Shown here piece by piece: positions 18,317-18,874 of a DNA stretch of 23,465 bases. The notes beneath the pieces are model-generated. The model worked only from the letters and a program-made list of their open reading frames with translations, did not search any database and was not told where the DNA came from. A program made the translations under genes and the position numbers. The first letter of the stretch is position 1, and each line of letters begins with the position of its first letter. Location of the stretch: the IMG/VR virus record IMGVR_UViG_2531839529_000006. The stretch is one strand, 5' to 3'. This DNA is from a virus (Duplodnaviria; Heunggongvirae; Uroviricota; Caudoviricetes).

Positions 18317-18874
18317 ATGAACCATGAAGAAATGAATCAGCGCTTCAGTCGCCTGGAAAATGAAATTGCTGAACTGAATAAAAAACTGTCGACGCTGATG
18401 CCTTCTGAAGATGAAAAAAAACGCCGCGATGAGCAGTTTGCTGCGTTTGACGATTATTGTCGGAAAGTGATGAGCAGAAATCTCGCAGAGTGTTTCAGTA
18501 TTCATAATGATAATTTCAGTGACCTGGAATGGGAGTGTAACCGGCCATCCTTTGTTGTATCCGGTGATGCCGGGAAAATAACCATCACAGAAAATGGGAA
18601 ACTAACACCTCCATCGCACCAGCACAGTGAGGAGCTCATTGAATTTGCCATTGATTACCTGAAGAACAATAAAAAGCAGGGGCTGATGAAGCGCGTTGGC
18701 CGTTGCATGGGATATCTGCAGATAGCTGCTGAGATTGAAGCGCTGGCCAGTGGTGCGGACAAGGATGCAGTTGTGCGGGAGGCTCTTCTTCGTGATTTTG
18801 ATAATCCGCCCTTTAAAAAAGTGCCGGCTTACTGGTTTCATCCAGGACTGACTTATCTTAAAGGACGTATATAA
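18317..18874 (+). CDS. Hypothetical protein (185 aa) between holin and endolysin
   Basis: ORF starting 4 nt after the holin stop; acidic and coiled-coil-like N-terminus; no transmembrane segment apparent. No family recognised. Confidence 0.6.
   Translation: MNHEEMNQRFSRLENEIAELNKKLSTLMPSEDEKKRRDEQFAAFDDYCRKVMSRNLAECFSIHNDNFSDLEWECNRPSFVVSGDAGKITITENGKLTPPSHQHSEELIEFAIDYLKNNKKQGLMKRVGRCMGYLQIAAEIEALASGADKDAVVREALLRDFDNPPFKKVPAYWFHPGLTYLKGRI

Follow-up and report, generated by a model that had tools for sequence, protein, structure and literature searches.

Genes inserted between the holin gene (S) and the endolysin gene (R) of lambdoid phages have a described counterpart in the YdfR family, which comprises YdfR of the K-12 Qin prophage and homologues of 114-329 aa in H-19B, BP-4795 and the Stx1 and Stx2 phages. 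These genes occupy the slot between an S21-type holin and the lysozyme, with a 3-4-nt coupling to the holin. The experimental data on the family concern only its DUF1327 domain: in two-hybrid and co-purification assays, residues 1-72 of K-12 YdfR interact with the catalytic N-terminal half of RNase E, YdfR preparations carry RNA, and the K-12 ydfR cluster is reported to be cold-induced (PMC13232886). Beyond general reviews, this RNase E study was the only source found in the literature on ydfR and DUF1327, on genes intervening between holin and endolysin and on the H-19B lysis region, and a preprint on Stx2 phage variation does not mention the lysis genes.

Two other kinds of system bear comparison with a gene in this position. 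Soluble antiholins are represented by P1 LydB and T4 RIII, with LydB, an antagonist of the holin LydA, encoded directly after lydA. The morons of lambdoid and Stx phages (stx, nanS-p, bor, lom) lie mainly in the late region, differ from it in composition and are dispensable (PMC8065619).

The window analysed here, a 23,465-nt stretch of DNA from IMG/VR record IMGVR_UViG_2531839529_000006, corresponds to the early-to-late portion of a lambdoid E. coli prophage. It encodes DicF, an immunity and replication region, DUF968, RusA, the Q antiterminator, a DNA methyltransferase, three tRNAs, iraM, a nanS-p-like esterase, the lysis genes and terminase, and no stx genes are present in it. The esterase (16080-17948, + strand, 622 aa), a SASA-family protein with an N-terminal DUF1737 and a C-terminal DUF6645, lies directly 5' of the lysis cassette. 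Within this cassette, an open reading frame of 185 aa (ORF185) separates the holin and endolysin genes, as the initial annotation had described, in the following arrangement:

18031-18059, + strand: terminator-like hairpin (12 pairs followed by a T run) in the interval that separates the esterase gene from S, about 40 nt 5' of the holin start
18098-18313, + strand: holin S, S21-type class II (pinholin), 71 aa (PF04971, E 9e-33; phrog_20 and phrog_9876, 'holin')
18303-18310, + strand: Shine-Dalgarno sequence GGGGAGAG inside the 3' end of the holin gene, serving ORF185 here and R in 933W
18317-18874, + strand: ORF185, intact from ATG to TAA, 185 aa (RefSeq WP_001759956.1, 'hypothetical protein'; PHROG 1085)
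18875-18916, + strand: AU-rich 42-nt spacer before R, lacking a Shine-Dalgarno sequence
18917-19450, + strand: R, SAR-type phage lysozyme, 177 aa (PF00959, E 3e-24; phrog_7, 'endolysin')
19541-19573, + strand: terminator-like hairpin after R
19749-20216, + strand: Rz spanin (PF03245, E 6e-48)
19969-20154, + strand: reading frame of Rz1, embedded in Rz, with a lipobox-like LVTAAC

The start codon of ORF185 (ATG at 18317) follows the holin stop codon (TGA, 18311-18313) after 3 nt (ATA) rather than the 4 nt initially given; the 4-nt spacing is that of the S-R junction in 933W and of DUF1327-bearing long forms. At its other end, 42 nt separate the ORF185 stop from the R start. The dN/dS values of ORF185 against four homologues of rising distance (0.31, 0.26, 0.32 and 0.22; Nei-Gojobori), its complete nucleotide identity across no fewer than 13 complete E. 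coli genomes of canine, feline, human and water origin, the presence of at least 80 % of its length in 250 of 5426 complete E. coli genomes (about 5 %) and its RefSeq annotation together indicate that it is a genuine gene and not a chance ORF. Partial matches extend to 885 of these 5426 genomes (16 %) and are nearly all chromosomal. Two antisense ORFs inside it (18143-18505 and 18602-18841, - strand) were without support. ORF185 is an already catalogued gene (RefSeq, PHROG 1085), and an ordinary one for its cassette type.

The encoded product was described at the outset as soluble, acidic and coiled-coil-like. Its solubility is borne out by a GRAVY of -0.67 and a peak 19-residue Kyte-Doolittle hydropathy of 0.76; its acidity is only mild (pI 6.0, with 30 D+E versus 27 K+R), and the coiled-coil-like character applies to residues 3-61, which are modelled as two long helices. 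No transmembrane or SAR segment was detected in the 19-residue hydropathy scan, and the protein accordingly lacks the hallmark of a membrane antiholin. Being soluble and devoid of a membrane segment, it is presumably cytoplasmic. No match to any defence-system model was obtained (PADLOC-DB, E <= 0.1).

ORF185 aligns over residues 1-185 with positions 117-296 of the 296-position phrog_1085 profile (E 1.6e-112, 376.7 bits), and no Pfam (E <= 0.01) or NCBIfam match was found for it. In particular, DUF1327 (PF07041) is absent, whereas a comparable Pfam scan detects it in the proteins of phage 86 (gp05), Stx2_95, PhiR12_1 and EH2201 (E 1e-34 to 1e-46). Proteins of 287-296 aa annotated as YdfR family or DUF1327 contain the whole of ORF185 at 83-89 % identity over 98 % of its length, and across the long YdfR members as a whole (287-329 aa) this identity is 83-95 %. 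ORF185 hence is a DUF1327-less short form of the long YdfR family, corresponding to its C-terminal two thirds. Since the reported RNase E data concern DUF1327 only, they are not transferable to a protein without this domain.

Alignments with annotated phage genes outlined a family of three modules, namely DUF1327/YdfR (M1), a helical hairpin (M2) and a conserved C-terminal domain (M3). ORF185 comprises the latter two:

18317-18520, + strand: M2, residues 1-68, coiled-coil-like helical hairpin (AlphaFold2 helices 3-27 and 31-61, pLDDT 73-91)
18521-18871, + strand: M3, residues 69-185, conserved C-terminal domain (pLDDT 82-96, invariant alignment columns)

Across the phages compared, the modules occur in these combinations:

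M1 only: 114 aa, Stx2_EH2201 (103 aa in K-12 YdfR)
M1 and M2: 169 aa, PhiR12_1
M1 and M3: 268 aa, Stx2 phage 86 gp05
M1, M2 and M3: 296 and 329 aa, Stx2_95
M2 and M3: 185 and 213 aa, the window (185 aa)
M2 and an unrelated C-terminus: 161 aa, Stx2_499
an unrelated N-terminal domain and M2: 181 aa, P0134, phrog_2091

The family is a mosaic in which modules come and go in many combinations. The inducible Stx phages 86 and Stx2_95 (a Stx2a phage) illustrate this exchange: gp05 (268 aa) and BCI50300 (329 aa) occupy the same S-R slot as ORF185 and carry its M3 at 85 % (the C-terminus of gp05) and 95 % identity, but, unlike ORF185, both have an N-terminal DUF1327, and phage 86 further differs from the window in lacking the M2 hairpin and in having an extra convergent gene of 104 aa before R.

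Structure prediction with AlphaFold2 reached a pLDDT of 52 with 14 close homologues and of 82 with 24 sequences including Salmonella relatives. In the resulting model, the two helices of M2 (3-27 and 31-61) are followed by a disordered linker (56-69) and by an M3 fold consisting of a three-strand beta-meander (79-84, 87-92 and 95-97) and four helices (101-117, 123-144, 151-161 and 176-184). The motifs of M3 are H103, G128-R129-x4-L134-Q135-x-A137, P165-x-K167, W173, P176 and Y180; in the ORF185 numbering, G128, R129, L134, Q135, A137, P165, K167, W173, P176 and Y180 are invariant, and H103 and E139 nearly so. Foldseek searches with the ORF185 model returned no fold match in the PDB or BFVD (E <= 0.001). 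A sequence-profile search of the PDB yielded a 24-residue match to 8tch_A over 'LGRxxxLLQV' (E 0.08), which was taken as chance; no paper mentioning this entry was found. The homology and structure predictions that the initial annotation called for have hence placed the protein in a family (PHROG 1085, long YdfR) and left M3, by its confident model, as a putative orphan C-terminal domain with no structural relative in either database.

The range of the family is narrow. A word-indexed search of 5.8 billion proteins identified 170 relatives of ORF185, all named ones among the matches listed being from E. coli, and a HMMER search of 1.84 billion cluster representatives gave 44 matches. Distant relatives are 30-42 % identical in M3, and the named ones are Salmonella enterica prophage proteins, several of which have a DUF1327-like N-terminus and a coiled segment ahead of M3. 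A profile of M3 alone matched 76 proteins. In both profile searches, all named matches came from E. coli, Shigella or Salmonella, and no match, among the 44 or the 76, presented a fusion to any functionally known domain. Of the 50,697 phage records searched, 20 encode M2 or M3, and M3 is found in five of them (two records of phage 86, Stx2_95 and two Stx2_12E129 phages).

The genomic context was surveyed in IMG/VR using the best 80 of 186 viral contigs encoding M3, a sample biased to close relatives. Of these 80 loci, 41 encode the 185-aa form, which is the commonest, 28 a 296-aa, six a 329-aa and three a 158-aa form, and two run off the contig. The lack of DUF1327 in ORF185 raises the possibility that it is a 5'-truncated leftover of a 296-aa YdfR-family gene, carried as a functionless passenger, and copies that are further truncated or frameshifted do exist. 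They include the three 158-aa forms (L064-L066), in which the first ATG lies 83 nt downstream of the holin stop, and the 217-aa-type copies at L004:4001-4653 and in L005 (Shigella flexneri / E. coli chromosomes), frameshifted near the C-terminus; many partial fragments were also present among the matches. Such decay is difficult to reconcile with dN/dS values of 0.22-0.32, with a start codon and Shine-Dalgarno sequence of its own, both well placed, or with the prevalence of the 185-aa form in the best 80 of 186 loci and in clusters of several hundred member sequences. Short M2-M3 or M3-only forms, moreover, occur independently in Salmonella. We consider it highly improbable that ORF185 is a remnant of this kind.

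The position of the gene is strongly constrained in E. coli. In all 78 of the best 80 loci that include upstream DNA, the reading frame directly follows an S21-type holin, with 3 nt between the holin stop and the start codon for M2-M3 forms and 4 nt for M1-bearing forms, and R starts 36 or 42 nt past the stop of the family gene in 77 of 79 loci. The loci L017-L022 likewise have their family gene in the slot between an S21-type holin and the lysozyme. The S-ORF-R arrangement seen in the window hence is the rule for the family in E. coli. The premise that lysis cassettes usually have no intervening gene holds for lambda and 933W, but not for the S21-type cassette, in which the slot is often occupied: in two separate searches of the 50,697 phage records, 369 matched the S-R region of the window (megablast) and 101 encoded DUF1327, including H-19B, BP-4795 and many Stx1a and Stx2c phages.

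In Salmonella and unassigned relatives, the gene is located instead in the Q-holin interval, on the late strand and 150-800 bp upstream of a holin of either PF04971 or PF16080; wherever these loci extend through the holin, holin and lysozyme genes overlap directly, and two short contigs (L008 and L009) end before any holin. Where the contig reaches a holin gene, all homologues found are adjacent to it or no more than about 1 kb away. Since the Salmonella relatives sit upstream of the holin, the conserved feature is a location early in the late operon, beside the lysis genes, and not between S and R as such.

Two further genes accompany M3 in related loci. A convergent gene of about 104 aa with no Pfam family is found immediately 3' of the M3 gene in several Salmonella prophages, in one locus with a 185-aa form and, in E. 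coli, in phage 86 and next to the 213-aa forms (L002:4186-4500, L010:4807-5124, L008:2378-2713, L009:585-902 and L020:3652-3966, all on the - strand, and L063), the copies in L020 and L063 being recognised by position and BLAST match only. The four copies compared (phage 86, L008, L009 and L010) are 37-64 % identical. The window lacks this gene, with only the 42-nt spacer at 18875-18916. It could form a functionally linked pair with the M3 gene or be merely co-inherited cargo. The M3 gene is immediately preceded by a DUF4406/DUF7768 gene in several Salmonella-type loci (L006:3639-4004, L008:1089-1487, L105:3189-3473 and L106:473-790), with a 4-nt overlap in two of them.

Proximity to the holin and the invariant coupling observed in E. 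coli are also what would be expected of a lysis modulator, the first of the two options raised in the initial annotation. ORF185 might bind the cytoplasmic tail of the pinholin or the tethered SAR endolysin, or its insertion might lower R synthesis in cis through loss of the R Shine-Dalgarno sequence. The 3-4-nt coupling, the location of all relatives, including those in Salmonella, adjacent to or near a holin, the precedent of soluble antiholins in LydB and RIII, and the charge of M2 (pI 5.3), acidic opposite a strongly basic holin C-terminal tail, are consistent with such a role.

Comparison with 933W nevertheless provides an argument against a dedicated partner of the holin. In this phage the holin is 99 % identical to that of the window (one substitution), R is 93 % identical, and nothing lies between S and R; many Stx2a phages likewise encode near-identical S and R with no insert, as judged by comparison only. 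Given that near-identical S and R occur in 933W without an insert, ORF185 would seem needless for holin and endolysin function, and hence accessory and dispensable. The window holin retains its own dual-start antiholin motif, M1/M4 (MYQM), the relatives go with two holin families and lie on either side of the holin, and a protein fitted to one fixed partner would not be expected to lose and gain modules freely. LydB is also soluble and encoded just downstream of a holin, but a relationship to ORF185 was rejected (hhalign probability 0.09 %, E 0.57), and no lysis-annotated PHROG was matched. With neither a membrane segment nor any such similarity, the antiholin-like designation finds no positive support, and nothing found marks ORF185 as a lysis regulator. 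A role in lysis modulation, in any of the forms considered, is regarded as unlikely.

The cis effect envisaged above can be traced in the translation signals of the cassette. In 933W, R starts 4 nt past the S stop and uses GGGGAGAG, within the 3' end of S, as its Shine-Dalgarno sequence. The same element precedes ORF185 in the window, with a predicted anti-Shine-Dalgarno duplex of -8.5 kcal/mol for both genes, and the window R is preceded by CGATAAATCCTGATAAATATCC, for which the duplex amounts to +0.3 kcal/mol. This same R leader without a Shine-Dalgarno sequence, the conserved right-hand junction of the slot, is also present in phage 86, Stx2_95, EH2201, PhiR12_1, L017 and L020, whatever the content of the insert, and R in those insert-bearing cassettes begins with MN(T/A)KI(K/R)YG, versus MSRKLRYG; the SAR-like N-terminus of R in the window reads MNTKIKYGLSAAVLALIAAGAPAP. 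The insert has taken over the ribosome-binding site of the endolysin, and insert-bearing cassettes initiate R in a very different region. This pattern, with fixed left and right junctions and exchangeable content, suggests that the S/R junction of S21-pinholin / SAR-endolysin cassettes is a recombination slot.

That R lacks a Shine-Dalgarno sequence in every cassette with an insert that was examined is compatible with lysis modulation, and this leader could itself alter lysis. Because the insert takes the endolysin ribosome-binding site in every such cassette, cassettes with and without an insert may differ in endolysin dosage. As stx lies on the shared late transcript and the toxin is generally considered to be set free by phage lysis, the two kinds of cassette could also differ in the kinetics of lysis and in toxin release. 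Any effect of ORF185 on lysis would be indirect, through this altered translation of R.

The base composition of ORF185 (GC 45.2 %, GC3 44.1 %) deviates from that of its neighbours (GC/GC3 of 55/68 % for the holin, 55/61 % for R and 56/58 % for Rz), as is typical of morons. Between 15500 and 21000, the consensus scan identified no sigma-70-like promoter on the + strand, nor does it place a terminator directly behind ORF185, and the gene thus lacks the promoter and terminator of its own that a moron would carry. With no promoter-like site on this strand, and with hairpins only before the holin and after R, the simplest reading places ORF185 on the Q-dependent late transcript. It hence shares deviant composition, late location and apparent dispensability with the late-region morons of lambdoid and Stx phages, but differs from them in its placement within the lysis cassette and in its translational coupling to it.

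Foreign base composition and the neighbourhood of iraM and the nanS-p-like esterase, within a late-region hot spot for morons, would also fit a moron expressed from the prophage to the benefit of the lysogen, for instance by affecting stress tolerance or the envelope or by excluding other phages. The convergent gene of about 104 aa in many related loci, which could only be transcribed separately from the late operon, and the reported cold induction of the K-12 ydfR cluster (PMC13232886) point in the same direction. Expression from the prophage is nonetheless at odds with the lack of a promoter-like element on the + strand in 15500-21000 and with the terminator-like hairpin at 18031-18059, just upstream of the holin. 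The sharing of the holin 3' end by the ORF185 start, furthermore, means that even independent expression would need transcription through the holin gene. We deem a benefit to the lysogen very unlikely as the role of this gene.

The dispensability deduced from 933W, the foreign composition, the module shuffling, the occurrence with holins of two families, both before and after the holin gene, and the distribution over few genera argue for ORF185 as an accessory passenger in the late operon and against a part matched to S21 or R21. Insofar as the initial annotation also proposed a moron exploiting late expression, this option fits better than the lysis regulator, given the GC content, the insert-free cassette of 933W, the mosaicism and the Salmonella positions; the textbook definition does not fully apply, as no promoter-like site lies upstream and translation is coupled to the holin. 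The reading we adopt, to which we assign about an even chance, is that ORF185 encodes a late-expressed, moron-like accessory protein acting on a target other than lysis.

Under this accessory reading, ORF185 would be expressed together with the holin, from the late transcript that Q antiterminates, and its job would lie outside the core lysis pathway. The M2 hairpin may serve self-association, with M3 as the putative effector or binding domain. Guessing from architecture alone, the product would most likely be a binding or adaptor protein directed at a host or competing-phage target, and in the long isoforms DUF1327 would add the RNase E or RNA binding reported for K-12 YdfR.

The cassette that harbours ORF185 belongs to the kind of phage lysis cassette that has been studied most, and Shiga-toxin phages are among the prophages concerned. 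If a host function is its target, it joins the catalogue of late-expressed phage accessory factors, with long isoforms that may act via RNase E. The analysis adds to what was described for the family a DUF1327-less member of a three-module mosaic, an orphan M3 with a predicted fold, a fixed-junction slot associated with loss of the endolysin Shine-Dalgarno sequence, and a conserved convergent partner gene in related loci. A bolder proposal, which we hold to be rather improbable, is that M3 defines a new class of enterobacterial prophage protein acting at the end of the lytic cycle, either as a soluble regulator of the pinholin and SAR endolysin or, with the partner of about 104 aa, as a conflict module. 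If true, the partner and M3 would constitute a two-gene module for phage-host or phage-phage conflict hidden in the lysis cassette.

The interval between R and Rz (42.6 % GC) constitutes a second variable slot of the cassette, at which 933W carries ant. In the window it contains the strong terminator-like hairpin at 19541-19573, followed by an ORF of 45 aa (19610-19747, + strand; phrog_6632) with a GTG start, a Shine-Dalgarno duplex of -8.7 kcal/mol and one hydrophobic segment, the stop of which lies 1 nt ahead of the Rz start.

Several other genes in the window are typical moron cargo. They comprise the DicF RNA (1118-1169, - strand) and, in the interval from Q to the lysis genes, three tRNA genes (Ile, Arg and Arg in the matching annotated genome), the STnc100 sRNA and an iraM-like anti-adaptor gene, located in that order at 14958-15204 (+ strand), 15284-15473 (+ strand) and 15499-15834 (- strand). 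In the early region of the prophage, two ORFs of 384 and 754 aa (approximately 6945-10338, + strand) match the 'anti-phage ATPase IteA' and the 'S8 family anti-phage peptidase IteS' of the closest complete genomes and correspond to a defence system.
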